DNA of 63,967 nt, filler included, from Circinaria calcarea (GCA_051942165.1; 3 parts of 3 records of this genome joined end to end with filler, not necessarily neighbours in it); one strand, 5' to 3'; positions 17,235 through 40,232 are shown, numbered from the whole stretch's first letter. Program-made: numbers and translations. Notes: generated from the sequence alone by a model not told the origin.

Positions 17235-20200
17235 TCACCTCCGATCGAAAAACCAACTACTTCTCTTCCCTCCCTCTTGTCCTCCAAGTAATCCACTTAG
17301 CACCGGAACGTTCGGTCCCCCTGCTCCGGTTCCATTGGTGTTATCAAAGGCACCACCGCCTCGAAGCGGTTTCGCGATGCGAGAGCCCGCGCCGCCGAAA
17401 CTGAAACCGCCGGTGGAGGCGATGGAGGAGCGTGTGGAGCCTAGTTTGGCGGCTTCGAGACGGTCTTTTACGGCGGTGAGTTGGGCTTCAAAACTATTGG
17501 GAAGGCCACAAGGAAAGGTTAGTTGGTTGTAAATGTATGGGGGGAAATGAAGGGGAGGAGGGGGAAGGATAGGGGCTGGAAGGGCTGATGAATAAAGAAA
17601 AGGAAGAACAGGTAAATGGAAACATACCGATGATTGGCGGCTGTCAGTTTCTCCTGACTGTCGCCTAGCAAAGCTTCCAAACTCAAAATCCGCTCGTTCC
17701 TCGCACTGAGCTTCCTCTCCGCAATCGCGACTTCTTTCTTCAAGCTTCCGTTTTGATCCACCAGCTGCCGCTGCACATGCATCAACTGCTCAAGGTTACG
17801 TTCGAGGAAAGCCATCTTCTTCTGCTGAGCGCGGTTGTTAGATGAGCGGAGGACGTTGTTGTATTGCTCTCGGGTTTCATCGAGCGAGATTTCCAGCTCG
17901 ACTACGCGCTCGCACCGGTTTTGCAGGTCACGCATGAGGGATTTCTTCATAATATCAAAGTCGGCAATTTGTTGCTGGACGGTTTTGCCGTTGAGGCCAG
18001 GGCTGGAGACGCCATTTGTGGACGGACCTCTTGGGTGGTTTTCTACTTCATCGAGACGGGCTCGTAAGCGGGTGTTTTCTTGAATCTTATGGTCTAGCTC
18101 ATGATGTAGAGATTCGATTGTGTTCAGCTCTCCGTCCAGTCTGCTGCCATAGGATTTCTCGAGCCGATCCTTGACTTCATCAACATCAGCCTCGGAAAGA
18201 TTTCGTTCTAGTATTTCTTCGTATTCCCGCTCGATTGCTGCTAATCTTTCTTCCAGATCGTCTTTCCGTCGACTCCGATCATCTCCATTTTCTGCTCGCG
18301 CAGCAAAGCTAAGCTCTGCTTGCCGTACAATCCCTTGGGTTTCCATAAGTTGTGCACTAAGCCTTCCTAATTCATCAGGCGCCACAATCTCCCCAGCCAT
18401 GCTTATCTGGCGCAAAGCATCTACGTGCTCGATGCAACGCCTGATCTTCTTCTCATTATCTGAAAATACCTCTTCACCCATCTCAAATCCAGCCATCATC
18501 TGTGCCATGCGTTCAGACTTCTTCCTCTCTTTCTGGTCGAGAGCCGCATGAGTCTGGTTTGCAATCATCTTTGCGTCTAAAAGCTGCTGCTTGACCTCAT
18601 CCAGCTCATTCGTGAGCTCTAAGTTGGCTTCCTTTAGACTATCCATTGTGATACTTGCCTCTTTACTCTCGTAAGCAACCCTTTCAAGCTGCATTTTCAA
18701 CTCGTTAGTCTCACTACTGAGCCTCTCATTCTCTTTGATTGATCTGCCGGCCGTTTCTTTCAGATACCTGAGCTCTTCCTTCGCGCTCTGTAATCCTTTT
18801 TCAACAGCAGCTATTTGCGTTTCCTTTTCTGCAACCTGATCCTGAAGCTCGTTCTCCCGTCGTAAAAATTCTTCCCGTTCATCTTTGTCGAGAACAACGC
18901 TCGGCGTACTGGATCGATCACCTAATCTTGACTCTGATCTACTAGGTGTCTCTGACCTTGCCACATCTGCCTGCAGGTACGAAGGTGTTCCCGATCTTTC
19001 TGATCTTTGTGATCTGGATTCCGCCCTTCTCCCAGAAACACCATCACTCGCTAATGAAGCCGCCCATCGCTCTCTAGGAACCGATTCTCCACTTCGCCAC
19101 GACTGCACCTCTCCTTCCAGGCTTGCTAGATAGTTCTCGTATGTAGTGACCTGGCTCTGAGCCTTCTTGAGCAGTTGCTTTAACTCCGCTGGGCTCAGTT
19201 CGGCGTTTATCTTGGCCTTGTTCTTGATTGCCTTTGCCCTCACACCGAACCGAAGGGTGCCGAGGGTCTCAGCATCATTGTAGCTACTAGGCGAGCAATT
19301 GATGATGAGCGTCGTTCGAGAGTTTCCTCCGAGTGATTCTTGAAGGATTCGTGTAAGCTTAGAGTCACGGTATGGTATATGGGTTGATTTCCCATCCGTG
19401 AGAGAGTTGATGACCATTCCCAATGCACTCAAGCTTTTGTTGATTTTCTTAGCTTCCTCTAGGGTCTGTCCACTCGCTCCAGTTTTTCCAACCTTCTCAC
19501 TACCTGCGAGATCCACGAGGAATAGTTGACCGCTCTTTGCCGATCCAGTCTCGACATTCTTCTGCGTGATAGTGACGACGAATATGGAATGTGAGCGCGA
19601 AGACTCTTGATTCATGTTCGTAGCCGCTACAGCTCTCGTGGTGCCGCCTCTTCTCATGACCTCATAGACCTCCTGCACGCTTGAAACGTATATTTCCAGT
19701 AGTCCTTTTACATATACGCCCCTGCTTTTCTCTTCGTGCACCGGTAGGTTATCATTCTGTGGCTGCAGGAGATCCCTAATCCTTTCCATGTATATTTCCA
19801 TGTAGCTCACCCTCACAGTGTATTCGATATTTCCCGGACTAGCTAGTATGCTTGCGAAGATCTGCTCCACGATGCGCGGTATTATTCCCTTTGATACCTC
19901 ATCGTCAATGTCGGCGCCCATCATGGTATATGACTTCCCAGCCCCGGTCTGCCCGTAGGCGAACACGGTACCATTGTAGCCATTAAGAATATCGTCAACT
20001 GTGGGTCTAATGGAGAAATCGAAGACATCGCTCTGGCGCGACTTGGTATCGAAGATGCGGTCGAAGGTAAACGAGCCTGTTGCCTCTCTTGACTAATGAG
20101 CTGTCAGCTTGGGTGCGGAACCCTCCGAATGAAGGTCGGCTGGTTGAGGGTTTGGCAGAGCTGCCCAGGGGCGACAGGAGCATACATTGATCGTGCACGT

Positions 20201-22747: not shown

Positions 22748-23371
22748 ATGGTCATTCGTGTCAAGCGATCCGCCTTAGCCTCCGGGCTCCAACGCTCTAT
22801 GACCCGCATGAGCCGTCTGCCCCAGCTCCGGAGACACCTCCACTCCACGCCATCCCGTTGTCGAGAGATCCGTGATGCCTACATCCTCAGTGCCTCTCGC
22901 ACGCCCATAGGCAAGTTCAACGGCTCTTTCCTGACTGTACCCGCGCCCGATCTGGGGGCAACCGCCATCCGCTCGGCGTTGTCGAAATCCAATGTCCCGG
23001 CTTCCTTCATCACCACTACATACATGGGCAACGTCCTTTCTGCCGCCGTAGGCCAAGCCCCCGCACGTCAAGCTTCCATTCTCGCTGGTCTTTCGCCAAC
23101 CGTGGAAGCCATCACCGTCAACAAGGTCTGCGCATCCGGCCTCAAAGCTGTCGTCTTTGGCGCACAAGCCATCCAGCTCGGCATCAATGAGGCCGTCGTA
23201 GCTGGTGGGATGGAGAGCATGAGTCGGGTACCATACTATCTGCCGAGAGGGAGTGGTATGCCTGCCTTTGGAGAGATAAAGGCCGAGGATGGGCTGATCA
23301 AGGACGGCTTATGGGATGTTTATAATCAAATCCACATGGGGGTTTGTGCGGAAAAGACGGCGAAAAAATAC
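22748..23371 (+). CDS. ERG10: Acetyl-CoA acetyltransferase (thiolase), 5' part, truncated by contig end; presequence-like N-terminus
   Basis: Motifs [30 protein letters not shown] (catalytic Cys), AGGMESMS and DGLWDVYN. Confidence 0.92.
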
Positions 23372-23471
23372 NNNNNNNNNNNNNNNNNNNNNNNNNNNNN
23401 NNNNNNNNNNNNNNNTTAATTAATTAANNNNNNNNNNNNNNNNNNNNNNNNNNNNNNNNNNNNNNNNNNNN
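23372..23471. other. Artificial contig spacer
   Basis: N-run, TTAATTAATTAA (stops in all six frames), N-run; exactly 100 nt. Confidence 0.98.
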
Positions 23472-23612: not shown

Positions 23613-24199
23613 ATATCACAAGACTGGAATATAGCGCCGACGTCACGTCGCATGCTCGACACTGCCTAGACGACCTTCATTCACAGTTATCGCAAACACC
23701 GTTTCGTCGCACAAGGATGATGATCGAGACAGTGCATAAACGAGTGCTTCTGATAGAGAAGAAAAAGTACTGTACACTGTCCGTCCACAATCAGATAAAG
23801 TACAAAGGCTTGTCGATAGTAAGACGAGACACGCTCGGATTATGCAAAAAAGCATGCAAGGTCGTCACGGCAGCACTATTACTTAATGAATCGGTGCATG
23901 ATGCACGAGACATTATTGCAATGTTTATCTCGGACGTAGTTTTAAGAGCTATAAACGGGAAGCTGAGCCACGAAGAAGTATCGAAGGTAGTGAAGCGAGA
24001 CCAGAAACGATGCTTTGTGTACACAGGCAAAGATGGTCTTGAGAAGTCAGTACCAATCGATTTATCTAAGAACACCATTCCTGATTATGATTGTACTAAC
24101 GTACTCAACTCTGTGAAAAACGAGGTTTTAAGAATCACAGGACCCTGCGGGCTTGGAACAACGTCTGATATTATGGAAAACTCAAGAGTATTGTTCTAG
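23472..24199 (+). CDS. polB: Family B DNA polymerase, C-terminal part (continues from 45236-46811 across the circular junction)
   Basis: Motifs YGDTDS, KKKY and KGLSIVRRD. The first 45 aa are identical to the end of the 45236 ORF. Confidence 0.95.
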
Positions 24200-25999
24200 G
24201 GCAAGACTGTTAAAATTCCCGAGGAGAGAACATGCTGTGGTGGTACGAGGAGATTCGTGAAAATCTTCTAACATTGAGATCTTAGTGTAATCTGTCGCTA
24301 ATAGAGATTCGATCCATCCTAACTTCCTGGCAGTCAGACCTTGACGGGAAGTAATCGGATGCCGAGAGGCACCAACCTGATACGTGAACAGCACTGATAA
24401 GTCCTGCAACTCTAGCTCCGACATCGCTATCCCATGGTAGTTGCACACTACTTTAATACCGCGCATGCATATCGTAGATATGTTTAATCCAGCTTTTTTT
24501 GCCCTGTATAAAGCTATTGGGTTGTAAGCAACCTTCAAATGCTTTGCTAGTCCGGTAGTAATCGAGTTGGGTGTACACAATACTTGATAGCTGTCATCAC
24601 TTTTCCTTTTCCATCTAGCATGCATTTTCTCTAGTTCTGCGCATGAGGCTTGTACATCGAAGTATACTAAGGTATACTTAGACGTTGGCCCTAGAAGTGT
24701 ATCTCTCTCACACCCTAGCAGTAAGTCTGATATCATGTCGTGCACATCGAGAACAGAGGTCTGTGCTCTGTGAGAATCTAGCGCTGCCTGCTGCGCTTTC
24801 GAACATAAGTTCATAATTCCTCTGACTGACGGACATCCGACATCTGCGATACCGTCATTTAGAATCTTCATTTCCCCTGTTCGTGTCACAACATACAGAC
24901 CACCACTGCTCGGTCGAAAGAAACAAGATGCCGCTATTCTTGCGGTCCTAGACATAGACCCGATAGAGCCTTGCGATAATTGCTGCCTTCCTACATCGTT
25001 CATTCCTCTGATTGAGTCTTCGACTACCATATGTAGATATGAGCCGGTACCAAACCTGGACTTCATTCCGAGAATGTGCTCCTTCTTCATTCTAGCTAGA
25101 TCTCCGAAGACTAGGTCCGCTGTTCCGTTCTTCAGTTGTTTCGCGCTCAACGTGGTATTCTCAATGAATGCCATAGAACTTTCGCTGCACGGACTCTCAT
25201 GCTTCTGCAGATCCGGTGCAAGAGAATTGTAAAGTTCGCGTGCCTTCTTAAAATTCTGAAACGGTACTAAAGTCCACTGCTCGCACTCGGATATAGAATC
25301 CTTGTCAAAGATTGGTGTTACCTGCGCTTCGTCTCCATCATAGTCTCCATGAAACATAGTAAAAGTTTCTGGGTGTATGCCGATACACTCGAGGTCCCAG
25401 TATCGCACTTTAAGAGGTTGAGTATTTGCAATAGTAAGCGGTGGAGGTCGAACCAACATTATCCAGTCTCCTTCTTGTATTGGGCCTTCTGTATAGACCT
25501 CATTTTCTATGCCATCGCTGTTATAAGTCTTTCGGCATACCCTAATCTTAGAACACAGATTCTCAGAAATGAACACAGAGTGCTTATCAGTCTTCTGAGT
25601 TCTCGCGATTAGCCTCATACTCCCAGCAATAGGTGCGGACATAGTAGATCTCATATTTCCGTGTTTCCCATAGTTCGTGGTCATTAGAGCCTCTATATAT
25701 CCGTCTCTGTTCCCGTTGAAGGCCATTTTTGCAGCCACATGATACTGAGTTACAATCTCTACCGCCCTCATTGACATGGACTGGGGAGGGAGAGGTATTC
25801 CGGCTACCGTTTTGCACATGTGACCAAAGCATCTTTTGTGTAGTCTACATCCCGCCTCGTATTCCTCCATCGAGTTGATCGTTACAGTGTCATAGCTCTC
25901 TCCTTTTTCAAATTTCGAGAGTTTTATTCCTGACACCTCGCAAAATCCGCCTGTAGGAGCACCTTTATGTACTCTTCTAGTGATAGTTTGGCGCTCCAT
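24182..25999 (-). CDS. Minimal DNA-directed RNA polymerase largest subunit (Rpb1/beta'-like), 605 aa
   Basis: Ordered Rpb1 motifs: CFGH (cf. CxGH), GKHGNMR (cf. GKxGRxR), LVRPPPL (cf. NRQPSLH) and catalytic FHGDYDGDE (cf. NADFDGDE). Confidence 0.88.
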   Translation of the reverse strand: MERQTITRRVHKGAPTGGFCEVSGIKLSKFEKGESYDTVTINSMEEYEAGCRLHKRCFGHMCKTVAGIPLPPQSMSMRAVEIVTQYHVAAKMAFNGNRDGYIEALMTTNYGKHGNMRSTMSAPIAGSMRLIARTQKTDKHSVFISENLCSKIRVCRKTYNSDGIENEVYTEGPIQEGDWIMLVRPPPLTIANTQPLKVRYWDLECIGIHPETFTMFHGDYDGDEAQVTPIFDKDSISECEQWTLVPFQNFKKARELYNSLAPDLQKHESPCSESSMAFIENTTLSAKQLKNGTADLVFGDLARMKKEHILGMKSRFGTGSYLHMVVEDSIRGMNDVGRQQLSQGSIGSMSRTARIAASCFFRPSSGGLYVVTRTGEMKILNDGIADVGCPSVRGIMNLCSKAQQAALDSHRAQTSVLDVHDMISDLLLGCERDTLLGPTSKYTLVYFDVQASCAELEKMHARWKRKSDDSYQVLCTPNSITTGLAKHLKVAYNPIALYRAKKAGLNISTICMRGIKVVCNYHGIAMSELELQDLSVLFTYQVGASRHPITSRQGLTARKLGWIESLLATDYTKISMLEDFHESPRTTTACSLLGNFNSLALEQYS

Positions 26000-26073: not shown

Positions 26074-27303
26074 ATGCATACACAACTTCTAAAGCGTAAG
26101 CACGTCAAGTACGTCCCAGAAGATATACTTCTAAAGATACTTCAGTACACGAACGTCGGGGACATGCATAAGGTAATCAGGACGCTTAGTCCAGATCTAT
26201 GCAACTCTGAAGGCAGCAAACTGATAGACTCTGCTCTGAATATAAGAGCGTACCTTAGCGCAGTAACGGATTTTCCAGATGCTCTTGCTACTATAATGAT
26301 GCATACAGACGTTATTCTTTCAGGATCTATTGCTCTCAATTACTTTGTGCCTGGTAGTGCTATAGAATCCTCAGACTTAGATTTTGTGTCTGGCATGAAC
26401 AATGATTTGAGTGAGGTTTTCATGACTGCTACTACTAGGATAGGCTTTATCTGGTGTACGAGAGCCAGATATAACGACAAGTACGCACAGGGCGCAGCGC
26501 ACAAGGTCCACACAGGAAGAGTGAAGGCCCATGGGAAGACTTACAACATTCATATGATTTCGAGCGTGTTCGATACTGCCTATGATCATGTGATGCAACA
26601 CGACTTATCGATAGTGAGATGTTTCATTTCTGCTTCTTGTGCCGTATCAGTACATCATAGCACCACATCGAAAATGGTGTACTGGATTGACAGACACCCG
26701 AATCTCAGTACATGTACAAGGATGGCAAAGTATGAATCCAGAGGCTTCAAGTTTCTACCTACGCATCGGAAGTGTTCTTCTAGACTTATCAAAAGGAACA
26801 TTATTGATGCCAGTAGTATGATCATCACCTTCGAGAAGTATCTCAACGTATTTGACGACGACAATTCTTGCCTGAGTACTATCGCGAAATTGAGAGAGTT
26901 TGTAAGTGATTGCCAGAGTTGTAACAAAAGTAGACATAGTCCAACTAGTGTTCACTTGCAGAATAGTTTTGTTTCTGATCTGCTAGGGTATGATATGGCT
27001 GGTGTAGTGAACTACGGAAAAGTACTTCGTGCATATGAGAAAACATGGAGATATCGAATTAGTAGTGTCGTGTTGAACAGCATTGAAAGATGGGCCCAGA
27101 GATTCACAGAACTCAATAAGATGACATCTCACGAAACCAATGCCCAAAAGACAACTGCTGTGTGCAACACTTATATTGCATATGATGAAGATCCTACAAG
27201 AGAAGATGTGATCCCGCGAATACGTGCATCTGAAGATGATATCGCAAGTCTACGCTTAATAGAATTGTTGGAAGACTTTTCATATTTTGGTCGCCGGCGT
27301 TAG
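26074..27303 (+). CDS. F-box-like plus nucleotidyltransferase-like protein (fungal-type)
   Basis: N-terminal VPEDILLKILQY (F-box-like), then VILSGSIALNYF…SSDLDF (GS…DxD NTase-like signature) and KYESRGF. Confidence 0.6.
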   Translation: MHTQLLKRKHVKYVPEDILLKILQYTNVGDMHKVIRTLSPDLCNSEGSKLIDSALNIRAYLSAVTDFPDALATIMMHTDVILSGSIALNYFVPGSAIESSDLDFVSGMNNDLSEVFMTATTRIGFIWCTRARYNDKYAQGAAHKVHTGRVKAHGKTYNIHMISSVFDTAYDHVMQHDLSIVRCFISASCAVSVHHSTTSKMVYWIDRHPNLSTCTRMAKYESRGFKFLPTHRKCSSRLIKRNIIDASSMIITFEKYLNVFDDDNSCLSTIAKLREFVSDCQSCNKSRHSPTSVHLQNSFVSDLLGYDMAGVVNYGKVLRAYEKTWRYRISSVVLNSIERWAQRFTELNKMTSHETNAQKTTAVCNTYIAYDEDPTREDVIPRIRASEDDIASLRLIELLEDFSYFGRRR

Positions 27304-27394: not shown

Positions 27395-29539
27395 ATGGCC
27401 TTGTGTATGTCTTGTGGAGCATTGCTTCAAATCATTGAATATCAGTCCCGCGCAGGAGATGAAGCCCACACTACTGTAACTGTGTGTTCTCAATGTCCGA
27501 TTCGAGCTGACAAGCTAGATTTCGAGAAAGCACCACATGATTCTTTTCAAGGATTTTACAAACAGCTGAAGAGAAGAAAGCTTTCCTCCGTTAGAAATAT
27601 CTCAGTAGATGGTCTTAAAGCTTATCTTATGACCATCGATACGCTCTACGAGAACTTGAGAGACAAAGAGTACCCTAGCAATGAGCAGATAGTGCAGAAG
27701 ATCCGCATGAAAGGAAGAAGAGGATCGGGTCATGGCAAAGAGAGCATAATTGAGGGATACTACACAGTCAATGGTCCGCTGCTTGGTACGTGTACTAGAC
27801 TAGAATCAAGAAGAAGTGTAGGCTTTGGTATTTGGATTGAGACCTACGAACTGTATAACAGTCCTGTCAGACGCGAAGAGGATAGGCTCATAGTACGTGC
27901 ATTGTTTGAGCCTCTTTCTACCTATAAAGGCCACAGAAGGTATGCGTACGTAGATCAAGTAAGCTCAAAGACGAAGCAAGTGTTCGACCTTGGAACTAAA
28001 GAACCTACAGCATTACTGTGTGAGCAGATTGTAAACAGCGCGTATCTCTCAGGCTCGGCACCTCAGAAACTAAGATTATATCTAGGAGAGGATAGTATTT
28101 CGCGCCTTTCGAATCTCAGCCCACGCGGCTGGGACGCAAGCGCAGTGCCTGTAACTGGTTACTCTATCGCTCCCAAACCCGATGGTCAGCGGGTATGGCT
28201 TATATGGTATATGAACATGTGGTACGTAACAAAGCCAAGAGTAGAGCCTGGGAAGTTGAGCTGGTCATGGTCTAGAACACAAGCACCGACTTCTCTTCCG
28301 GTCATTATAGACGCTGAGTATATGCCATCTAAAGGCTATATCGTCAATGACTTCTTAACAGATATTAATGGTGCTTATGCTCCAGCGTCTAGAGATATAT
28401 CTTGGATAGAGGTCAACTACGATGCGCTCGCGAAATTACGTCCTCCTATATCCGTTTTGCTCAAGCCATACTTCAGAGATGCGACGGAAGCCCGTGAGTA
28501 CTGCTCTCTAGTCAATTATCCTACAGATGGACTTGTTGCAATCAGGGACAGCAGCACAGAAATTCTGAAAATCAAAGACTTTAAGTCTGTAGAACTGCGC
28601 TTGGATGACACGATGATGTTCTGCACTGCTGAAGGTTCGCCGGTGTTCAGATGCCCGAATTCTAAGAACTTAGCAGTCGAGTCCATAGTAGAGATTAAGT
28701 TCAGTGAAGGCTTGACATCTGGTAGCATCAGGATTGTAGATATGTTTGAGAGAACTGATAAGGCTATTCCGAACTCCAGCGCTGCAGTTTCTAATATTCT
28801 ATTTTCGATGTCATCGTTGAACACTAAAGACGACAACGAACGGCGTGTTGCACTCTTGTGGTGTAACGAAATCAGGAACTTCGTAGTTAACAGATCGAAA
28901 CAACTGTCTCCTTCGAAGTCTATCATTCTAGACGTCGGGACTGGATCCGGTCAATCTCTTGACTCTATACAGCAAGATGAGACATTGTCGTATATCTTTA
29001 TGGAACCAGACCTCGATGCCTGCAAAAGCCTAGCACGGAGAATACGCGCCAAGCATATCATATCTTCTACTGCTGAAATTAGATCCATGATACGTGGCTT
29101 GAAAACTCGCTCCATCCTTAGAATTGTGGTGAATATGACATTGAGGCAGCTAATGGATGATTCTGAGACCTTCGAATCGTTACTTACCGAGGTCAAGTGC
29201 GTCACTTGTACTTTTAGCATACATTATCTGTTACGAGATTTACGAGATCTGAAAGCTAGGTGTGACATACCAGTGCTAGGATGTGGATATCTGTACGACG
29301 GAACGAGACCAGATGGAGTTTTAATAGATTGTAGCGGAGTCAAGATGAAGAGAATTTCTGATACAGAAGCTGAAGTAAGGTGGGGCAGAGATACTAAGTA
29401 TGTTGAACCAGTGACATTTCGACGACACTACGCAGGCTTAGGACGTGTACTACAGGGAAGTGACCTGGTAAGCCTCCCAGATCCATCACTGAGTCCTAAC
29501 GCTGTTCAAATATGCCGTCACGTCTTCGTACTGGTGTAA
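27395..29539 (+). CDS. mRNA capping enzyme (guanylyltransferase plus cap methyltransferase) with N-terminal TFIIS-type zinc ribbon
   Basis: N-terminal CxxC…YQSRAGDEAHTTVTVCxxC. GTase motifs PKPDGQR (KxDG), IDAEY, NDFL, DGLVA and LKIK. MTase motifs ILDVGTGSG and CTFSIHY. Confidence 0.85.
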   Translation: MALCMSCGALLQIIEYQSRAGDEAHTTVTVCSQCPIRADKLDFEKAPHDSFQGFYKQLKRRKLSSVRNISVDGLKAYLMTIDTLYENLRDKEYPSNEQIVQKIRMKGRRGSGHGKESIIEGYYTVNGPLLGTCTRLESRRSVGFGIWIETYELYNSPVRREEDRLIVRALFEPLSTYKGHRRYAYVDQVSSKTKQVFDLGTKEPTALLCEQIVNSAYLSGSAPQKLRLYLGEDSISRLSNLSPRGWDASAVPVTGYSIAPKPDGQRVWLIWYMNMWYVTKPRVEPGKLSWSWSRTQAPTSLPVIIDAEYMPSKGYIVNDFLTDINGAYAPASRDISWIEVNYDALAKLRPPISVLLKPYFRDATEAREYCSLVNYPTDGLVAIRDSSTEILKIKDFKSVELRLDDTMMFCTAEGSPVFRCPNSKNLAVESIVEIKFSEGLTSGSIRIVDMFERTDKAIPNSSAAVSNILFSMSSLNTKDDNERRVALLWCNEIRNFVVNRSKQLSPSKSIILDVGTGSGQSLDSIQQDETLSYIFMEPDLDACKSLARRIRAKHIISSTAEIRSMIRGLKTRSILRIVVNMTLRQLMDDSETFESLLTEVKCVTCTFSIHYLLRDLRDLKARCDIPVLGCGYLYDGTRPDGVLIDCSGVKMKRISDTEAEVRWGRDTKYVEPVTFRRHYAGLGRVLQGSDLVSLPDPSLSPNAVQICRHVFVLV

Positions 29540-29619: not shown

Positions 29620-30327
29620 CTACTGTTCTGCAAATCCAACACTCGGGTTTCGATATTTGTTCCTGACCTTCCTAGCTGGAAGAGCTTCTTCGATCTTCTG
29701 CTCTTCCTCGTCCTCGTCCTCATAATCGCCACGCTGAAGAGCATCCGCAACCATAGGCTGATAAAGCCTCTCAAGACTTGGGGTTGGTCTCACGATGGAG
29801 TTCCCGACTCTAACGGTTGATACATGTGGACTAGAGAACTTTTCCTTTCTATACTTTGGCGCGGGCTTCAGATCCCTAGCTTCGTCCTGCTCGCTCTCTT
29901 CCGCAATACCAACATACCTAGAACCAAATTTCGATGTCACTGAACCGCTTCCGCCTGTATATTTGGCTGACAGCCTTTTGGAGTATTCAGGTCTGCTTCT
30001 ACTGCTGTGACGACTCTTCCCGGAATTGTAAGAGGCTACAGAGGTAGAACGGGAGAACACAGTGGAACCCTCTGGCCACATAGATCGAAACTTGTCCTCA
30101 GGGTCATTAACAGCAGCAGGACATCGAATTCTTGAGTTCATATCGCCAGCTATATAGGAGTACAGGTTGTCGAAACATTCCACCATTGTGTCTACGTCTA
30201 TACCATGATAGTACTCTGGGGCACGTATTGTCTGGCATATGTTTTCCATGGTGATTCTGATGTAGTCCAATGAAGGCCTGGTACTGGAATGCGCTTTTGC
30301 CGTCTGTGGTCTTGAGAAGAAAGACAT
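29620..30327 (-). CDS. Hypothetical protein, Ser/Arg-rich
   Basis: 235-aa ATG ORF that fills the gap in a gene-dense element; no recognised motif. Confidence 0.65.
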   Translation of the reverse strand: MSFFSRPQTAKAHSSTRPSLDYIRITMENICQTIRAPEYYHGIDVDTMVECFDNLYSYIAGDMNSRIRCPAAVNDPEDKFRSMWPEGSTVFSRSTSVASYNSGKSRHSSRSRPEYSKRLSAKYTGGSGSVTSKFGSRYVGIAEESEQDEARDLKPAPKYRKEKFSSPHVSTVRVGNSIVRPTPSLERLYQPMVADALQRGDYEDEDEEEQKIEEALPARKVRNKYRNPSVGFAEQ

Positions 30328-30338
30328 TGTTATATACG

Positions 30339-31481
30339 CTAATGTGCAATGCTACCAGCAGTTTCAGACCAACTGGTCAGTGAGCTAAGCGACATTTTGT
30401 CGCATTCTACTTCTCTTGCCAAAGCTAGACAGTTTAATACCGTATAGTTAGTGGTAACCTGCTTCCAAAGCTGCTCTATTACACTCCTGTTCTGAGGTGC
30501 AGACAGAGACCATGCTCTCTTAAACGCATACGTGGCAGCGCCTATTACAAACTCTACACTAGGACTTACGTTCTGCTTGGTGGTAGTGATCTCAGATAAC
30601 TTTCGGTACCAGCATATCGCGCTGTTAGGATCGGAACGGAAGAAATATGTTAGTCTATCATACACTTCTGGAATAAAGTCCGCGTTACTCCATCCTACGA
30701 TTCCTACCACAGTAGCTCCATTCATAATAATGTGATCTGGTGAGAGATTTCTGTGGCAAAGAACAGCACTACCAGTGTAAACCGCACCCTGGGCTGGTTG
30801 TATACAGTCATCTTTATGCAGTATTCCAGCTAGTTTATCCACGAAGACTCTAGCAGAAATATATCCTGATGCGGTACTACATCGAAGAGGACCGTCCTGT
30901 ACATGCCCGAAATACTGAGATTGCTTCTCTGCAATGCACCATACTATAGCAGCGACTTGAAGGAGTATCGCATCGATATCTTCCTGATCTAGTGCGTTCA
31001 TAATTGAACTGAGAGTCTGACCTTGTATGTACGTTCTAACCCCTATGCTTACGAATCTCTTCTCATGTCTTACTACAGTCTTATTCTTGTATCTAGGCAC
31101 TTCAGTAACACCTGATACCATTGGTATCACAAGGTGGTCCCTTCCGTTGACATCTCTTAAAACCTGTCCCCATTTTACTATCAGAACATCGCATTTAGCA
31201 TCGTGTTTGTAGTACACCTTAACACAGAAGCTTGTCGGACTCTCGTAGATCAACACAAATTTTGTTGCGTCCTTAATTTGAATTTCAAGCGGTGTTATCT
31301 CACCGATGTCTAGTAGTAGCGTATCATCAGGAACTCGAACGTCGGTAGAGCACGGTCTAGAACCGTAGTGTGGAGATCGGGTGTATGAAGAGTGACTACT
31401 GGAAGATGACCGTCTTCCTGTGTGATTCCTGTGCCGAATGCCCTCACTCTTCTGGAACGAGATCATATTTAAAAGACGCAT
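30339..31481 (-). CDS. APH/choline-kinase-like phosphotransferase fold, catalytic residues degenerate
   Basis: VLCHRNLSPDHIIMNGATVVGIVGWSNADFIP aligns by eye with HGDLxxxNIxV…GIIDWExAGxxP; TYIQGQTL and YFGHVQDGP match the fungal APH-like pattern. Confidence 0.65.
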   Translation of the reverse strand: MRLLNMISFQKSEGIRHRNHTGRRSSSSSHSSYTRSPHYGSRPCSTDVRVPDDTLLLDIGEITPLEIQIKDATKFVLIYESPTSFCVKVYYKHDAKCDVLIVKWGQVLRDVNGRDHLVIPMVSGVTEVPRYKNKTVVRHEKRFVSIGVRTYIQGQTLSSIMNALDQEDIDAILLQVAAIVWCIAEKQSQYFGHVQDGPLRCSTASGYISARVFVDKLAGILHKDDCIQPAQGAVYTGSAVLCHRNLSPDHIIMNGATVVGIVGWSNADFIPEVYDRLTYFFRSDPNSAICWYRKLSEITTTKQNVSPSVEFVIGAATYAFKRAWSLSAPQNRSVIEQLWKQVTTNYTVLNCLALAREVECDKMSLSSLTSWSETAGSIAH

Positions 31482-33858
31482 TGCGAATTATAGCGTTGGT
31501 GATGTCTAGAACAAACGTGTCATACGGTATGGACACGAAAGCATGCTCAAGTTTCCTAGTACATGTGCACAGCAGCCCTAGGCGCTGGCACCGTTGGCAC
31601 ACATGACACAATATCTGGTCACCGCGACGCTTAATTTCTTTGTTGCAGCTGTGACATCCGCCAGCAGACAAGGACTGCGTATCCATTTCGCTCCACGACA
31701 CACCACCGCCTCTAGTTCTGCCTTCAGGGGTTCTGAGGCTGAACTCCGATAGAGACATATGCGATACGTGTAGGCGCTCTCGGCACATTTGAGTTTGGTT
31801 AAACATTCTGATGAACCCCAGTGTCGCCTTAGTGTCTACGGACTTTACGCTGCCGTATTTATCGTATACAAGGGTCTTAAAAGGCTCGCCGGTAGTCCCT
31901 TCAATGACTGTAAACTCGTCGTCAACATTGCAGGTCTCGCCAGGTGTGACAACGACAGGACTAGATTCTGAAGTATGAACTGCTGACATGGCTCTGCACG
32001 CTTCGTAAAGTTGTCCATGAGTCTGCCTAGTTACTATCGAAGACATCGCTATAACGACATCTGGTACTATCGTACCGTGTTTATCGTTATGTGCAATTGG
32101 CATGTCCTGATATTGCACTATAGTCGCCACGCCCTTTTGCCCGTGTGGTGTGGATAGTTTGTCTGAATCTTGTAGACACTGATAGCTCCTAACTTTCACA
32201 GAAATGTCACCATTCTTAAGATGCCTTACGCTCTCAACTACCCCTGTAGGCTTGTTTCGTATCTGATATTTGCTGGCGTTGAGATCTTCAAGCTTGTGAG
32301 TGCACCATTGTTGACAAGGACACTTCCACCATGGGTACAACCTTGCGCACATAGTAGATCCTACTGGTGGTATCTTCTCAGACTGAGGAAGGTTGAACCG
32401 ACACATTGAGAGAGTGCTAAAACCTCCGTTCTCTACGTACTTTTTTGATACTATGAATGCATCTTCATAATTATCTTCCATGTTGAGAAATAAGCACAGG
32501 GCGTTCTCTCCAGGAATATGGCTTGATATCGAAGCATTTCCGTCGCCTTGATCTTTCATTACATCTGCATATCTCGGAGTGGTAACAAGGGGCTTAAATG
32601 TATGACATGGCGAAACTGCTGCATCGCCCACACACCACGGAAGGCATGCGGCTTGAACTGTTTGTACTGATGCGAACTGTGGTCTTGGAGGCTTGTCATT
32701 CTCTATATAGGGCCAGAAGCTCCACAAGGTAGAAAAGCCCGCTCTTAGCGCGTCCTTTCCGAAGAAATCGAGGAATGGTCTGATGCTACCCTTTATCTTC
32801 GAGCTGTAATAGTATTCAACATTATCCACGTAGTATCCATTGGTGCAGAGCTTTAGCAGAGTACCCGAAGATATAGAGATTAAGACATACCTCAGCTCCT
32901 CGGAAATGTGGAGACTGTAGGGACAGTCTGCTCGTAAGCTTAGTGTCTGGTGCATCTTGAGAAGTACATAGAGCTGACTCTTTGAGATGTAGGATACCCA
33001 GCCTACACAGAACAATGTCCACATGTCCGATGTCGAATCTGCATCGGGCATTACACTAGACAACGCACGAAGCTCTTCGACAGTGTTCCAGCACAGAATT
33101 CTTCCTGAGACATCCTGAGCAACCTTCCGAATCCTTCCGGCCTCACCGGAATGAGACGTGTGGCCTGCACAAATAAAACCTTTGAAGTCCTTTCGGTATT
33201 CTCGTCTCGAAAGATCTGGAACTTTTGGTTCTTCTCCTGGACTCATGTCTATTGTCTGGACATCTCCGCTAGACCCTAGAATTCCGATGGATGCGGCCGC
33301 GTTGTGTGGATACAAGAACATTTTGGTATAGTCTACGTCGGTTCTGTAGTGGTCTGCTTCCATAGCGGAGTGGACGATACTAGCAGAAATCGGGGGTCCA
33401 TATCCGCGGTTTACGAGGTCCAAGATACGGGACTCCTCTAAGCTCACGGCAACGTTCTCACACATCCAGTGTCTTTCATCGCCAATTTTTCTTAGCGAAT
33501 ATTCTACGGTATTAGGTATGGCCCATAGTCTTCCTGAACGTAGTGCTGGTGTAAGGCTCTGTGTTATTCCCTCTATCATTTCATGAAAGCTGTTCGTAAT
33601 CTGAATCCGAAAACATATGATCTTTTCGTGCTCCATATGACCAATAGTGTTTCCGAATCTGTTCAGGCATGATATTTGTTCCGGTGTCATTGCCGCACTA
33701 AGCTCCGGTACAGGGTTGGGTACCCACGATATACCACCAGAGTCTCTGTACCTGACGAACATGTTTCGGAGTGTAAAGCTTGTAGACAGTGACACCGCCC
33801 AGACTGCAGCATCCTCTGCCGGTATGTTAAGGTTCCTGATATCATATGCCGCCTCCAT
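31444..33858 (-). CDS. DNA-directed RNA polymerase second-largest subunit (Rpb2/beta-like), about 804 aa
   Basis: Motifs GFICAGHTSHSGEAG, PYIENDKPPR, GENA…NYEDAFIVS, DKLSTPHGQKG, PDVVI…TRQTHGQL, EGRTRGGGVSWSEMD and a C-terminal CxxC zinc site. First ATG at 33858 (the track uses TTG at 33894). Confidence 0.93.
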   Translation of the reverse strand: MEAAYDIRNLNIPAEDAAVWAVSLSTSFTLRNMFVRYRDSGGISWVPNPVPELSAAMTPEQISCLNRFGNTIGHMEHEKIICFRIQITNSFHEMIEGITQSLTPALRSGRLWAIPNTVEYSLRKIGDERHWMCENVAVSLEESRILDLVNRGYGPPISASIVHSAMEADHYRTDVDYTKMFLYPHNAAASIGILGSSGDVQTIDMSPGEEPKVPDLSRREYRKDFKGFICAGHTSHSGEAGRIRKVAQDVSGRILCWNTVEELRALSSVMPDADSTSDMWTLFCVGWVSYISKSQLYVLLKMHQTLSLRADCPYSLHISEELRYVLISISSGTLLKLCTNGYYVDNVEYYYSSKIKGSIRPFLDFFGKDALRAGFSTLWSFWPYIENDKPPRPQFASVQTVQAACLPWCVGDAAVSPCHTFKPLVTTPRYADVMKDQGDGNASISSHIPGENALCLFLNMEDNYEDAFIVSKKYVENGGFSTLSMCRFNLPQSEKIPPVGSTMCARLYPWWKCPCQQWCTHKLEDLNASKYQIRNKPTGVVESVRHLKNGDISVKVRSYQCLQDSDKLSTPHGQKGVATIVQYQDMPIAHNDKHGTIVPDVVIAMSSIVTRQTHGQLYEACRAMSAVHTSESSPVVVTPGETCNVDDEFTVIEGTTGEPFKTLVYDKYGSVKSVDTKATLGFIRMFNQTQMCRERLHVSHMSLSEFSLRTPEGRTRGGGVSWSEMDTQSLSAGGCHSCNKEIKRRGDQILCHVCQRCQRLGLLCTCTRKLEHAFVSIPYDTFVLDITNAIIRNASFKYDLVPEE

Positions 33859-33972: not shown

Positions 33973-34761
33973 ATGACGGTAACAGAAACTTCGGTAGTGA
34001 GCCTTGATGACGAGAGACGTGATATGGACAACTCAAATCTCTATGTCAGAGGATGGAGAGTAGAAGGGTCGCAACCAGAAGAAGAAAACGCGAAAGCTTT
34101 TGAGCACTTAAGAATGGTATTCGTACAAACGTGCGAGAACAACGAATGTTTATATTGGAAACGCTCCAGAACTAAGAACCTCGTGTTGTCAAAAGCTCAC
34201 GAAGTCCAAATAGAGATCATGCCGGTGTCAAAGAGAACGCTTGATGTGTACTGTGAATACTTCTCACAGTTTGTGGTGCAGGATCCAAAGCTAGACTTGA
34301 TCCTAAGCTTCTGTTTCAGCCCAGGATATAAGAAATCTCCATGTGTAGATATACCTGGATGTGCACTGTTGCAGCTTTCTTCAAGCGAATCAATCCTACA
34401 CTTCACGGTAGTAGAAATAAGCTCAAGAAGGTGCGCACTTGTGATTCCGTCTAGTGTCGTCAACGACACTATTAGTACGCTTAATATGTTAGGAGAATCA
34501 GTGGTAGCATCGTGGCATGACGGGTGGACATACAATGGGTCTAGAGTGCGCACATCGGGAGAGTATACAGAGGCAAGCTTTGAGTTCAGGGAGTGGAACA
34601 GAGAAGACCTGATACAATCGTTCGGTAGTATAGCAAAATGCGACGCAGTAGCTACTGCAACTTTCACTGTATCAATGGTGCTTAGCCCTGATCATCACGC
34701 TACTCGCTATATCAATCGCAAAAAGGTGCTAGACGTGGTGGTGCATTGCATTAAGCATTAG
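33973..34761 (+). CDS. Hypothetical protein
   Basis: About 262-aa ORF with first ATG at 33973; no recognised motif. Confidence 0.7.
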   Translation: MTVTETSVVSLDDERRDMDNSNLYVRGWRVEGSQPEEENAKAFEHLRMVFVQTCENNECLYWKRSRTKNLVLSKAHEVQIEIMPVSKRTLDVYCEYFSQFVVQDPKLDLILSFCFSPGYKKSPCVDIPGCALLQLSSSESILHFTVVEISSRRCALVIPSSVVNDTISTLNMLGESVVASWHDGWTYNGSRVRTSGEYTEASFEFREWNREDLIQSFGSIAKCDAVATATFTVSMVLSPDHHATRYINRKKVLDVVVHCIKH

Positions 34762-35639
34762 TGATGGCACCTGATCTGTGCTGTCCGCTGATGGGCTTGT
34801 ACGAGAGGCTAGGGATCGGGGAATGTACAGAAAGACGAGCCACTAGGCAACAGAAGAACATGCAGTTCGCTGCGATAAACTCCTATGTAGAGAATCTAGA
34901 GCTTCCACTGATATCTACAAACGATGCACAGACCCGAAAAGGCGATAGGTTTAAGTCCTGCATCAAACCCGACGCTTCTGATGCTAGCACCATAATCGCG
35001 TTTATTGGAACCTATTCTATGGTCAGGGATATTATCGTCTTTGATCCTCATGGAAGTACCGAACTTGCCACGATAGCCCTTTCTCAAATGCGGAGCTCAC
35101 TAGGGCCAGGCCTTACAGTCTCAGTTAAAAACTTGAACGATGGGAACTTCGATATTAAGTTTTACGAGACTAACACCAATCTAACCGCAAACGAGAGTGT
35201 TATGATCTCGTTAATTTCTGAGTTCGTGAAAAAGGAAGGCTCTATTACTCTGTATCTAAGCAAAGAATCGGAGGTATACGCTAGTATTCTTCAAGAAGAT
35301 TCGAAGTCGATGTGGTCCACTAGCGGTTCTAGCGGAGTGTCAATAACCGGATCGAGAGCTTCAAGGATACTTCCGAAGTTCTATGCAATGCCTAGCTCAC
35401 GCTCTAACGTCAGAATCAACGCAGGAAGAGCGGTTGTAGAAATTGCCCTTCCCGCTAGTGAAACGCAAGGACAGGTGAATACACTAACGGCGGACATTCT
35501 GAATGCGACAACCAAACAAGGTACATGCTTCTTTTGCTCATATATGATGAGCGTTCATAGGATGCTGTGCGAAAGCGCGAAGCTTCAGGAAACTTATGAA
35601 GTAGAACTATGCGATGCTTTCAAACTGACGACACCCTAA
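34761..35639 (+). CDS. Hypothetical protein (weak cysteine-protease-like motifs)
   Basis: 292-aa ORF with IIVFDPHG and KQGTCFF; start codon uncertain. Confidence 0.65.
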   Translation: MMAPDLCCPLMGLYERLGIGECTERRATRQQKNMQFAAINSYVENLELPLISTNDAQTRKGDRFKSCIKPDASDASTIIAFIGTYSMVRDIIVFDPHGSTELATIALSQMRSSLGPGLTVSVKNLNDGNFDIKFYETNTNLTANESVMISLISEFVKKEGSITLYLSKESEVYASILQEDSKSMWSTSGSSGVSITGSRASRILPKFYAMPSSRSNVRINAGRAVVEIALPASETQGQVNTLTADILNATTKQGTCFFCSYMMSVHRMLCESAKLQETYEVELCDAFKLTTP

Positions 35640-35669
35640 GAGCAGCTAGTGCTGCTTTAAAACACAACC

Positions 35670-37292
35670 ATGGATCAAGCTGCGGCTACTGTAATACATC
35701 AGCGCTGCCTCAAGTTCCTGTCTGATATATCTCTATGGAATAGCGGACACCCGATAGTACCAGCTTTCGCTCGTTACGTACTGTCTGCCCACTGTGCAAT
35801 CCCAATAGAACATATTATATTAGGTGAGAGACCTTATGGTACCAGCATCTTTCCATATGCAGCTTCTGCATTATCCTATGACTCAGATGTTCAGCGAGAC
35901 CCCACTCCTTCAGTACACTTTCTAGCACTAGAGATATCTTCGAGAAGTGCACTCGAATACAATACGATACGGGACTGGTTTCGAGACAGCTGGAAATACT
36001 TGCAATACGGCATTCTAGCGCTGAACATATGTACTCTACGAAAATTTATGGATACTGATTCTGAATATGAGATATCGAAGTTAAACGAATTCATCAGAGA
36101 TATCATAAACGTATCCCTTCGTGTTAGCAGTAAGAAGATACAGATATATGCATTAGGGAATCCTGCATCTCACAGTGCGTCCAGAATACGAAGTAGCGTA
36201 TCTGGATCTAAGAAGCTCGTTCAAATTCATAGATGTAGGAACCCAGCGGCACTGCAGCACCATACAAGCGACCTGCGGTCGCACAAAAACACTATTCTGA
36301 AGAGCCATGCATGTAAAGCGCTGTCAGGTTTGATAACTGAAACCTTTTGTTCGACTAAACTCCTCGAGCCCAGAGACTTCTTCAGAATGTCTTCTGGCAT
36401 GTCGAGTGATCATGCGAAGCTGATTAGTGCCAGCAAGTCTATGAGCGGCACTTTCGGAGAAATAGAGTCGTACTTCAAGCGCACAGGAGGTGGAAAGACC
36501 ATTGAGAAAGACGAGGACCTGTTTCGGAAGGCAAGGGAAGAGATGTCTCAGTTTGTGTTGGCACTGCAGGGAACGAGGATTCAGCTACTCTTCGCTAGTG
36601 TTCAAGAGCCTGGATCCACTGCCAAGAACGCATACTACAATACTAGGCAAGACTACAACAAGGCCAAGTATAACACTGGTAGTTCTAGCAAGGCTGCATC
36701 GAATACAACTCCAGGAAGAAAGACGTCCATTGGGTTTGCCAGCTCTGGAGACCCTGATGAGCAAGAAGGTAGCACCAGTAAAGACTCACCAATTACTGAC
36801 ACCTTTGTTCCTACGCCTCCTGTCTCTGGTGTGGGAAGTGACGCAGGATCGACAGTCTCAACACCACCTATAAAAATGCGAAAATCTGCATCTGTTACAC
36901 AAAGCATTGCTTCCAAACGCTCGACTTCTGTGCCTATAGGCTTCGCCGACGATATAACGGAAGAGACCGAGCTGCCAGAACCGCCGTTGAAGCCTGATAC
37001 TAGATCAGAATCTCTAATGACAGCTGATGAAGTCGCAGATATGTCTTACGTTTCAGACTTCCTTGAAGGAGATGAGGGTGTTGGAGTCGAGGATTTTGTA
37101 AAGGCGTTTATTGGAGAAGCTGTTAGAACCAAACAGGCTTTGGCTCTGCCTGCACAAGAAGTTTTAAAGATCATTCGAGATTCTAGACTTAATCCAAAGC
37201 TAAGAACCATCGAGTCATCTCTTGGGTATGTAGACGGAATTGTCGATATGCCGAGCCCTATCATGCAGTGGATTAGGAAGCATTCGGTGTAG
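35670..37292 (+). CDS. Uracil-DNA glycosylase-like protein, probably inactive, with a long low-complexity C-terminal extension
   Basis: HIILGERPY (cf. VILGQDPY), ALSY (cf. LAFS), YGILALN (cf. QGVLLLN), ALGNPA (cf. LWGxxA) and RNPAA (cf. HPSP/HPAA), in the correct order. Confidence 0.7.
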   Translation: MDQAAATVIHQRCLKFLSDISLWNSGHPIVPAFARYVLSAHCAIPIEHIILGERPYGTSIFPYAASALSYDSDVQRDPTPSVHFLALEISSRSALEYNTIRDWFRDSWKYLQYGILALNICTLRKFMDTDSEYEISKLNEFIRDIINVSLRVSSKKIQIYALGNPASHSASRIRSSVSGSKKLVQIHRCRNPAALQHHTSDLRSHKNTILKSHACKALSGLITETFCSTKLLEPRDFFRMSSGMSSDHAKLISASKSMSGTFGEIESYFKRTGGGKTIEKDEDLFRKAREEMSQFVLALQGTRIQLLFASVQEPGSTAKNAYYNTRQDYNKAKYNTGSSSKAASNTTPGRKTSIGFASSGDPDEQEGSTSKDSPITDTFVPTPPVSGVGSDAGSTVSTPPIKMRKSASVTQSIASKRSTSVPIGFADDITEETELPEPPLKPDTRSESLMTADEVADMSYVSDFLEGDEGVGVEDFVKAFIGEAVRTKQALALPAQEVLKIIRDSRLNPKLRTIESSLGYVDGIVDMPSPIMQWIRKHSV

Positions 37293-38283: not shown

Positions 38284-38301
38284 ATCTAACCCGTAAAATG
38301 C

Positions 38302-38314
38302 GCAACATCGTTGC
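38302..38314. promoter_or_regulatory. GCAAC-N3-GTTGC palindrome
   Basis: GCAACATCGTTGC centred between the divergent ATGs at 38283 and 38336. Confidence 0.7.
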
Positions 38315-38335
38315 ACTGCGATCACAAGGTCAAGA

Positions 38336-39211: not shown

Positions 39212-39427
39212 TGGAGACATTCGAATTATAAAACTTTTTTCAAAGGGCCCACAGCCGTATACGTATACAGTCTCATTGTACTTCCGCTGCCTTGTTACAC
39301 ACGACAGAAGCGAAGGAGGCTTAGGATAAAGACGCGCTAAGCTCTCTATGGATACGACAGTTCCAGCCTCTGGAATAATATATAAAATGGTCTTACTAGC
39401 GTGTGGAGGAGAATGGACAAGGTGGGA

Positions 39428-39435
39428 TTTTAAAA
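39428..39435. terminator. TTTTAAAA palindrome
   Basis: Between the convergent stops at 39211 (+) and 39541 (-). Confidence 0.45.
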
Positions 39436-39540
39436 ACGAAGAAGGGCATAAAGAGAGTCTCAGTGGTCTGGAAGGACATTAGAGTCATGACACGATTGTA
39501 AAAAATATGGCATTTAGTGTCCCCGCCATGGCGTTTGTCT

Positions 39541-40188: not shown

Positions 40189-40232
40189 TGTATTAGTTAG
40201 TGATACGAGCAGCGTCGAGCTGCACCTAAAAG

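Follow-up and report, generated by a model that had tools for sequence, protein, structure and literature searches.

Why would an mRNA capping enzyme carry at its N-terminus a zinc ribbon of the type that acts in the active site of RNA polymerases (RNAPs)? This question is raised by a gene at 27395..29539 (+) of a 63,967-nucleotide stretch of DNA (termed the window, filler included) from the Circinaria calcarea assembly GCA_051942165.1. An earlier note, made from the sequence alone, had described the gene product as a TFIIS-type ribbon fused to guanylyltransferase and methyltransferase domains, with about 200 unassigned residues in between. Here we find that the ribbon is fused to a giant-virus-type capping enzyme throughout most of a large protein family, and that the gene is carried by a self-closing DNA element encoding homologues of both large RNAP subunits. 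The reading that we favor as a whole, at a probability of roughly 60%, is that the capping enzyme is a resident subunit of this RNAP, that its ribbon enters the secondary channel, and that its triphosphatase domain, of the triphosphate tunnel metalloenzyme (TTM) type, has decayed.

Architecture and integrity of the fused gene

In the open reading frame (ORF) list of the window, the gene is a single unbroken, ATG-started frame of 2,145 nt (714 aa plus stop), exactly where the earlier note had placed it. Its domains are as follows, with the evidence that defines each given in parentheses.

27395..29539, plus strand: whole gene, ribbon-linker-TTM barrel-guanylyltransferase-methyltransferase (ORF list, AlphaFold2 model, Foldseek)
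27395..27502, plus strand: TFIIS-type zinc ribbon, residues 1-36 (invariant residues, family profile, Pfam, model)
27503..27604, plus strand: predicted flexible basic linker, residues 37-70 (low model confidence, conserved basic positions, no D1 counterpart)
27605..28117, plus strand: predicted TTM/CYTH-fold beta barrel and two helices, residues 71-241 (model strands, VIA-align, motif columns)
28118..28774, plus strand: guanylyltransferase (nucleotidyltransferase plus OB fold), residues 242-460 (VIA-align, K261 motif, Pfam LEF-4 in homologues)
28775..29536, plus strand: cap guanine-N7 methyltransferase, residues 461-714 (VIA-align, S-adenosylmethionine [SAM] motif I)

Relatives of the protein were found to be numerous. 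A word-indexed search returned 24 besides the query (561-778 aa, 20 of them at 707-740 aa) at 29-42% identity, with a query coverage of 99-100% in all but three; several of these are annotated merely as hypothetical proteins of filamentous ascomycetes (Aspergillus, Ophidiomyces, and Cordyceps). When 1.84 billion cluster representatives were searched exhaustively with HMMER, 203 were identified at E <= 0.001, 77 of these at <= 1e-30. The counts and alignments given below are based on 96 stored sequences of 600-820 aa. A distant relative was found in a record of the oomycete Albugo laibachii, and the capping-enzyme family extends past the ascomycete-associated clade. When IMG/VR was scanned, the sole return was one weak methyltransferase-motif match in a giant-virus metagenome-assembled genome, and the family was absent there by the scan used. 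A single-sequence phmmer search of the PDB with the whole protein gave no match at E <= 1; profiles and folds alone gave matches.

The full-length AlphaFold2 model, built with the 96 sequences, had a mean predicted local distance difference test (pLDDT) score of 90.5 and a predicted template modeling (pTM) score of 0.83, with pLDDT below 50 at residues 49-65 only. Among the closest 25 sequences, mean identity to the window protein was 50% for the ribbon, 45% for the methyltransferase, 43% for the nucleotidyltransferase part of the guanylyltransferase, 34% for its OB fold, and 19% for the barrel. As judged from this alignment, the ribbon is the best-conserved domain and the barrel the least.

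A fusion of this kind could be an artefact, in which a frameshift, a mis-assembly, or a mis-called start had joined a separate small ribbon gene to the enzyme. The sole point in favor of this explanation is that some database gene calls lack the ribbon. Against it, the 2,145-nt frame is continuous in the window, and the same architecture with a complete ribbon at the same N-terminal position was detected in 83 of the 96 relatives, from many independent assemblies; in 4 others the gene call starts inside the ribbon, and the hairpin and second cysteine pair are kept. In addition, tblastn found the ribbon and enzyme to be colinear in one frame in metagenome loci, covering residues 1-714 in L005 and 4-714 in L007 and L008. 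The artefact has a negligible probability and is refuted for practical purposes. Thus, the central claim of the earlier note, that the ribbon is truly fused to the capping enzyme, stands, and the assembly error that it had raised as a concern is countered by the 83 relatives and by the colinear ORF of independent metagenome contigs. Judging from its distribution, the fusion is ancient and conserved, the ribbon having been acquired at the N-terminus in an ancestor of the whole family.

The zinc ribbon and its linker

Residues 4-34 of the protein read CMSC...YQSRAGDEAHTTVTVCSQC, with C4, C7, C31, and C34 as the zinc ligands and R19-A-G-D22-E23 as the acidic hairpin. The pattern CxxC...RxxDE...CxxC has one match in the six-frame translation of the whole window and none in 100 shuffles. 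When the window protein was scanned alone with Pfam, its ribbon matched Baculo_LEF5_C (E = 3.2e-4, 20.7 bits against a cut-off of 24) and Zn_ribbon_TFIIS (E = 0.022, 15 bits against a cut-off of 21), and weak methyltransferase matches were detected at residues 505-554. Across 48 scanned homologues, PF01096 was matched at E <= 0.01 in 27, with 12 above the Pfam gathering score, and Baculo_LEF5_C was matched by 7.

The family as a whole was more informative. In an alignment of the 83 sequences with intact N-termini, which extends down to about 15% overall identity, C4, C7, D22, E23, C31, and C34 are invariant, while R19 and position 21 are conserved at 90% or above. A profile built from these 83 ribbons retrieved RPA12 first from the PDB (E = 4.7e-6, 8.8e-6, and 1.4e-5), followed by archaeal TFS/RPB9 (1qyp, 6.3e-5), TFIIS (1tfi, 1.1e-4), and vaccinia Rpo30 (3.4e-3); the Rpb9-C11 chimera, TCEA1, and RPC10 were also matched. 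The best 16 of the 23 PDB matches are TFIIS-type ribbons, always aligned at profile positions 3-41, with the R19-A-G-D22-E23 hairpin falling on RSADE of TFIIS and RAGDE of archaeal TFS. The model is consistent with these alignments, in that strands 10-16 and 26-31 are placed on either side of a QSRAGDEAH loop at a pLDDT of about 84. The identity of the ribbon is settled because of this family evidence (the 83-sequence profile and the Pfam scores of the homologues) and not by the single sequence. On these sequence grounds, the ribbon is assigned as a genuine member of the TFIIS/A12.2/C11 type, matching the cleavage-competent DE-hairpin ribbons; the proposal of a TFIIS/Rpc11/Rpa12-type ribbon with an intact acidic hairpin was therefore upheld by the RPA12 match of the family profile and the invariance of D22 and E23.

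The ribbon is followed by a linker of low model confidence, with mean pLDDT values of 59, 42, and 50 for the successive ten-residue blocks of residues 41-70. At positions 40, 56, 60, and 61, 83% or more of the close-clade sequences have a basic residue (K40, R60, and R61 in the window protein). The model suggests that residues 37-70 are flexible and long enough, in principle, to span a small polymerase. Vaccinia D1 has no counterpart of residues 1-69, the alignment with it beginning at model residue 70-73; the ribbon and linker are an addition to the body of the enzyme, because this body matches D1 from D1 residue 31 onward.

A variant of the ribbon, CxxC...R-L-G-A-D-E...CxC, was observed in a distant branch (P0111-P0162) made up of 14 of the 18 relatives with intact TTM motifs. 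Sampled members of this branch lie on contigs of about 7-18 kb, and one cluster includes an Albugo laibachii protein.

The guanylyltransferase and methyltransferase body

Structure comparisons were found to place the body of the protein among viral capping enzymes. The nine best Foldseek matches in the PDB are full-length vaccinia D1 chains at E ~1e-20, including those of the RNAP complexes 6rfl, 6rie, and 8p0j. The best matches in BFVD are the capping enzymes of pithovirus, marseillevirus, African swine fever virus (ASFV; NP868R), and entomopoxvirus at E 1e-24 to 1e-19 (the first three at 1e-24 to 1e-23), with LEF-4 of baculoviruses and nudiviruses at E ~1e-12. By VIA-align, D1 residues 31-840 were superposed onto model residues 70-714 with a Z of 16.5 and 546 residues aligned.

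Each catalytic domain was recognized in turn. Residues 217-475 aligned with the guanylyltransferases of PBCV-1 (1ckm, Z 12.8 over residues 217-474), Cgt1 (12.5), and Pce1 (12.3). The nucleophile motif of the KxDG type is present as K261-P-D263-G264 (KPDG), and K261, G264, D378, K394, and R453 are invariant in the 96 sequences; the names of the guanylyltransferase motifs follow the nucleotidyltransferase literature. The LEF-4 model of Pfam (PF05098) gave no match to the window protein at E <= 1; in 8 of the 48 homologues it was detected on the guanylyltransferase part, mostly at profile positions 358-470 of 472, with 2 above the cut-off. Residues 477-714 aligned with the N7-methyltransferases RNMT (Z 16.9 over residues 480-714, root-mean-square deviation 3.2, 206 residues), Ecm1 (16.3), the D1 methyltransferase 2vdw (16.0, also over 480-714), the C-terminal domain of ASFV NP868R (15.8), and Abd1 (15.8), and the residues of SAM motif I, D513-x-G515-x-G517, are invariant or nearly so among the relatives. 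The protein is a capping enzyme of the type found in nucleocytoplasmic large DNA viruses (vaccinia D1 or ASFV NP868R-like) with an added ribbon.

A predicted triphosphatase barrel that has lost the canonical catalytic residues

Between the linker and the guanylyltransferase lie the residues that the earlier note had left unassigned and suggested to be a divergent triphosphatase. In a separate model of residues 1-245 (pLDDT 87.7, block means mostly above 80), the prediction is of eight long antiparallel strands within residues 71-198 and then two helices. For this model, no PDB match by Foldseek was as good as E = 0.001, the best being Arabidopsis TTM1 at 5.5e-3, mixed with lipocalins. When compared with representatives by VIA-align, as the earlier note had suggested for TTM/CYTH tunnels, TTM/CYTH proteins made up 10 of the 13 best rows, all over residues 71-229: mimivirus triphosphatase 2qy2 (133 residues), T. 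cruzi Cet1 6l7v, and D1 4ckb each had a Z of 6.8, followed by E. coli YgiF (6.7), yeast Cet1 (6.2), and Pct1 (6.0), along with class IV adenylyl cyclases. The remaining three rows were a Mediator subunit, the PH1012 protein, and an RNA-editing complex chain. These barrel Z values are modest; besides the VIA-align comparison, the fold is supported by the superposition of full-length D1 and by motifs seen in distant relatives. Taken as a model-based assignment, the TTM/CYTH triphosphatase fold predicted for residues 71-241 is sound.

The catalytic residues tell a different story from the fold. In 18 of the 96 relatives the canonical motifs are in register (first-strand ExE, RxRxR, PG, SxxE, and last-strand ExE), while the window protein has LMT, YYT, GFGI, YEL, and VFD at the corresponding columns. 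Nine barrel columns are acidic or basic in 89-100% of the 20 sequences outside the window clade versus 0-36% in the 76-sequence clade to which the window protein belongs (A76, L78, I103, Y122, T124, T134, L153, V196, and D198 in the window protein), a comparison that rests on the alignment of a divergent region. Within this clade, the highest charge at any barrel column is below 60%. In a FastTree phylogeny of the guanylyltransferase-methyltransferase part (96 rows), the motif-less sequences lie on one side of a single branch with a support of 98, and of the 76 rows in this group, 74 were classed as lost and 2 as partial; an IQ-TREE analysis of 42 of the 96 rows likewise placed the 22 rows of the window clade on one side of a branch (100/98). 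The triphosphatase motifs were lost once, if the root lies outside the 76-sequence group.

From these replacements, the window protein is probably inactive as a canonical triphosphatase. The earlier suggestion for these residues thus holds in its fold (Z 6.8) and probably not in its chemistry, the canonical catalytic residues having been replaced; the barrel is more likely a decayed or remodeled domain than a merely divergent triphosphatase. Crude motif scans of the element for a replacement triphosphatase found no CX5R motif and no second ORF with paired ExE, and the only Walker A protein that they returned was the D5-like helicase described below.

The element that carries the gene

Spacers of the form N44-TTAATTAATTAA-N44, at 23372-23471 and 46812-46911, divide the window into three contigs, and the capping gene is located on the middle contig (23472-46811, 23,340 nt) and not in a fungal chromosome. 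The outer two contigs encode ordinary fungal genes, including a phosphopantetheinyl transferase, SNO, and those listed here.

17519-19966: kinesin, outer contig
22748-23419: thiolase, outer contig
50543-51268: Med20, outer contig
52267-53901: NUDE, outer contig

These fungal genes belong to other contigs of the fungal assembly and are not DNA flanking the element.

An exact direct repeat of 141 nt was found at the two ends of the middle contig (23472-23612 and 46671-46811), which gives a unit of 23,199 bp. The frame of a family B DNA polymerase is continuous across this overlap (45236-46811 then 23613-24199; 720 aa, no stop), and L002 encodes an uninterrupted homologue that matches the protein colinearly along 719 residues (48% identity). 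The 23,902-nt contig of a relative (L002/L004) is closed by an exact overlap of 123 nt at another place, inside its capping gene. The two assemblies are thus independently permuted and therefore argue for a circular or concatemeric genome, of ~23.2 kb in the case of the window element.

Among solved structures, the polymerase is closest to archaeal PolB and Pol alpha, with poxvirus polymerases next, and not to protein-primed enzymes. The following genes were also recognized on the element.

24182..25999, minus strand: RNAP largest-subunit (beta'/Rpb1) homologue, 605 aa, HGDYDGDE active site (Pfam, profile)
31444..33858, minus strand: RNAP second-largest-subunit (beta/Rpb2) homologue, 804 aa (Pfam RNA_pol_Rpb2_6, E = 3.7e-14)
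41133-42545, minus strand: D5-like primase-helicase (ESM atlas score 0.98, a lead only; Walker A GPGGSGKS at residue 232)
42704-43216, minus strand: RNase H (Pfam, E = 1.2e-27)
30339-31481, minus strand: kinase-like protein (weak APH match, E = 0.0023)

All 52 scanned members of the beta' family match RNA_pol_Rpb1_2, and the family profile matches Rpb1 at E = 7.3e-10; named homologues come from Exophiala, Ophidiomyces, Fusarium, and Acidomyces, and a protein recorded from a metagenome-assembled genome of the lichen-forming ascomycete Circinaria calcarea is identical to part of the beta' homologue. The beta homologue is conserved in four related loci at 44-46% identity. Both RNAP genes are syntenic with the capping gene in all four of the longer related contigs examined, and related contigs also keep the genes for the D5-like helicase, RNase H, and kinase-like protein. 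For about ten ORFs (26074-27303, 29620-30327, 33973-40245, 40301-41065, and 43415-45100) no Pfam family was matched; relatives share most of these at 25-41% identity. No gene for a capsid, a packaging ATPase, or a D12-like partner was recognized on the element, most of whose ORFs were not folded.

Several other features of the element were observed. The ORF at 26074-27303, directly upstream of the capping gene, is conserved in one locus only. Genes are tightly packed on both strands, with the kinase-like and beta-like ORFs overlapping by 38 nt (31444-31481) on the minus strand. A palindrome, GCAAC-N3-7-GTTGC, occurs six times as 13-nt sites (26039, 33891, 38302, 43233, 43361, and 45214), all within the element, intergenic and just upstream of ORFs, against a chance expectation of 0.40; none of 100 shuffles reached six. 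The palindrome recurs in relatives, with 10 copies in L005 and 4 in L008 (it is also found in L002, L004, and L007), and in L005, L008, and L002 a copy is positioned no more than ~35 nt upstream of the start of the capping-gene match. The capping gene of the window has a variant, GCGACGCGGTCGC, upstream. As a candidate signal, this palindrome may mark promoters or terminators used by the RNAP of the element.

A proposed role for the ribbon, and its alternatives

To account for the fusion, we propose that the capping enzyme is stably incorporated into the small RNAP that the element encodes, alongside its two subunits beta' and beta. The body of the enzyme would sit on the polymerase, and the basic linker of ~35 residues would let the ribbon reach the secondary channel, where the D22/E23 hairpin would complement the polymerase active site and stimulate RNA cleavage in backtracked complexes, in the manner of A12.2 in Pol I and C11 in Pol III. 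A single protein chain would thereby supply (i) transcript rescue, and perhaps 3'-end release; (ii) GpppN formation; and (iii) N7 methylation. The cleavage may serve proofreading, promoter-proximal rescue during capping, or 3'-end formation. The TTM domain of the window clade would probably be a structural spacer or dock, in which case the gamma-phosphate would have to leave by another route. This mechanism is favored by the invariance of residues whose only role is at the active site of a polymerase. It is also favored because D1 (chain O) and the TFIIS-like Rpo30 (chain S), to which the two halves are most closely related among solved structures, share the vaccinia RNAP complex 6rfl. In the yeast virus-like elements, moreover, the capping enzyme and both RNAP subunits make up a core complex that does not depend on nucleic acid (PMC6211774).

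Other roles for the ribbon were weighed against this proposal. One is that of a mere anchor or an initiation factor that does not stimulate RNA cleavage: vaccinia Rpo30, which is among the matches of the ribbon profile, is reported to act in promoter-dependent initiation as VITF-1, LEF-5 is reported to act likewise, and it is Baculo_LEF5_C that gave the best single Pfam match of the window ribbon (with the same model matched by the 7 homologues noted above). A pure anchor is nonetheless disfavored because it would not need the conserved D22, E23, and R19, the active-site residues of TFIIS-type factors, which are invariant or nearly so in the 83 sequences; the C-ribbon of Rpb9, which does not reach the active site, is not known to have the DE hairpin. 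We consider this role unlikely. If the ribbon instead served capping itself, as a finger that binds the RNA 5' end or a nucleotide or as a substitute for lost triphosphatase chemistry, its presence would fit with the missing canonical TTM residues of the window clade and with the motif scans, crude as they are, that showed no other triphosphatase candidate in the element. However, the ribbon is equally found alongside intact TTM motifs (e.g., P0111, P0114, and P0122); because the clade with these motifs has it, the ribbon predates the TTM loss and does not track it. Its sequence is, moreover, specifically of the polymerase-channel type, and a capping role is improbable.

The ribbon could also be directed at the host, with Pol II, Pol I, or Pol III of the nucleus as its target and the viral capping of host transcripts or a disturbance of host transcription as its outcome. 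The best matches of the ribbon profile are indeed cellular (RPA12, TFS, and TFIIS). Set against this are the beta' and beta genes of the element itself, syntenic with the capping gene in each of the four longer contigs, and the family-wide palindrome upstream of genes, which suggests promoters or terminators of its own; a host target is about as improbable as a capping role.

Several observations weigh against the proposed role as a cleavage subunit of the element's RNAP. The link between ribbon and polymerase is one that we infer by analogy. Nine of the 96 relatives have no ribbon (in 5 the gene call starts downstream of it and 4 have unrelated N-termini), and the window protein taken alone is sub-threshold for both Pfam ribbon models. 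LEF-5 of baculoviruses is reported to act in initiation, not cleavage. The ribbon is tethered from its C-terminal side, which is the reverse of TFIIS, A12.2, and C11; since a zinc ribbon has its two termini next to the zinc and far from the hairpin, the reversed tether may not matter. In the barrel, D82 is acidic in 24 of 24 sequences of the close clade, and 80-88% of this clade have a basic residue at positions 108, 168, and 193 (the window protein has T193); because these residues are kept, the barrel may house a remodeled triphosphatase site. Finally, the reduced RNAP of the yeast elements has been argued by Sykora et al. (2018, PMC6211774) to be without the rim helices that bind TFIIS.

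Novelty and implications

Searches of the full-text literature found no description of a fusion between a TFIIS ribbon and a capping enzyme or of this element family (subscription-only papers and supplements being outside their scope). A region-limited search with the P0168 ribbon (residues 1-45) returned the query itself as its sole match, a result that is silent on fusions in other families. Each domain belongs to a known family; as far as these searches show, three things are new: a ribbon combined with a D1-like enzyme, a tether on the opposite side, and the TTM decay of the 76-cluster clade. To our knowledge, every known system has secondary-channel transcript cleavage and 5' capping on separate proteins. 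In the present family, the cleavage ribbon and the capping at the RNA exit would be hard-wired in one chain, joined through deep divergence. Should the ribbon work like A12.2 or C11, this very small RNAP must have the capping enzyme as a fixed subunit reaching over two of its faces. Such an arrangement would offer a tractable three-protein model of how elongation rescue is coupled to capping and perhaps a compact module for expression in the cytoplasm.

The carrier element family itself appears to be undescribed. We suggest, as a possibility still short of probable, that it represents a widespread lineage, so far undescribed, of double-stranded DNA (dsDNA) elements that close into circles, are small (contigs of ~17-42 kb), and occur in filamentous ascomycetes, with distant members in other assemblies. 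These elements would combine giant-virus hallmark genes (polB, D5-like helicase, beta', beta, TFIIS, and D1-like capping enzyme) with no recognizable capsid gene and would encode a three-polypeptide transcription machine (beta', beta, and the cleavage factor plus capping subunit), the last member of which would have discarded its own triphosphatase chemistry. If so, this would be the most compact self-contained eukaryotic-type apparatus known for transcribing, proofreading, and capping. That a large clade has lost the canonical triphosphatase residues also poses the question of how transcript 5' ends are readied for guanylylation. Free virus-like elements are stated in PMC13348850 (2026) never to have been found in filamentous ascomycetes. 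The present element, a 23-kb DNA that closes on itself and carries giant-virus-like genes for replication and transcription, comes from assemblies of these fungi and bears on this statement.

Comparison with known systems

The yeast virus-like elements (pGKL2 K2ORF3/YKP3 and the K2ORF6/7 RNAP) resemble the window element in being small fungal dsDNA with a reduced RNAP and a D1-like capping enzyme, as described in PMC6211774. Heneghan et al. (2026, PMC13348850) describe them as linear elements that have terminal proteins and a DNA polymerase of the polinton/adenovirus type; this paper and that of Sykora et al. form the nearest literature, and both are about linear, protein-primed elements of the yeast type. 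In contrast, the window element is self-closing, its contig ends form the 141-nt direct (not inverted) repeat, and it encodes a D5-like helicase and RNase H. Its polB is nearest, among solved structures, to archaeal PolB and Pol alpha.

Baculoviruses provide both functions in one viral transcription system, but as the separate proteins LEF-4 and LEF-5. LEF-4 is an integral RNAP subunit and lacks a methyltransferase, unlike the window protein, which has this domain. A baculovirus link for the RNAP of the element was considered and rejected, as none of the 52 beta' homologues match LEF-9 or any other LEF model and all 52 match RNA_pol_Rpb1_2.

Closer in architecture are vaccinia D1, ASFV NP868R, and the enzymes of pithovirus and marseillevirus, which share the order of TTM barrel, guanylyltransferase, and N7-methyltransferase in one chain, and D1 is found bound to the viral RNAP in the solved complexes 6rfl and 6rie. 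D1 is without the ribbon and linker, whereas the window protein is without the catalytic Glu/Arg constellation of the D1 barrel; sequence identity between the two is only ~10-13%, and no D12-like partner was recognized in the element. The ribbon, for its part, has the same four-cysteine fold and Q-x-R-[SA]-[AG]-D-E hairpin as TFIIS domain III, A12.2, C11, TFS, and Rpo30, and differs in being N-terminal, tethered from its C-terminal side, and anchored by a capping enzyme, not by TFIIS domain II or an Rpb9-like N-ribbon. By analogy, the closest likeness would be to A12.2 and C11, in which the ribbon is permanently attached through a second domain and a linker, an arrangement that may be reproduced in the window protein with the capping enzyme in the place of this second domain.

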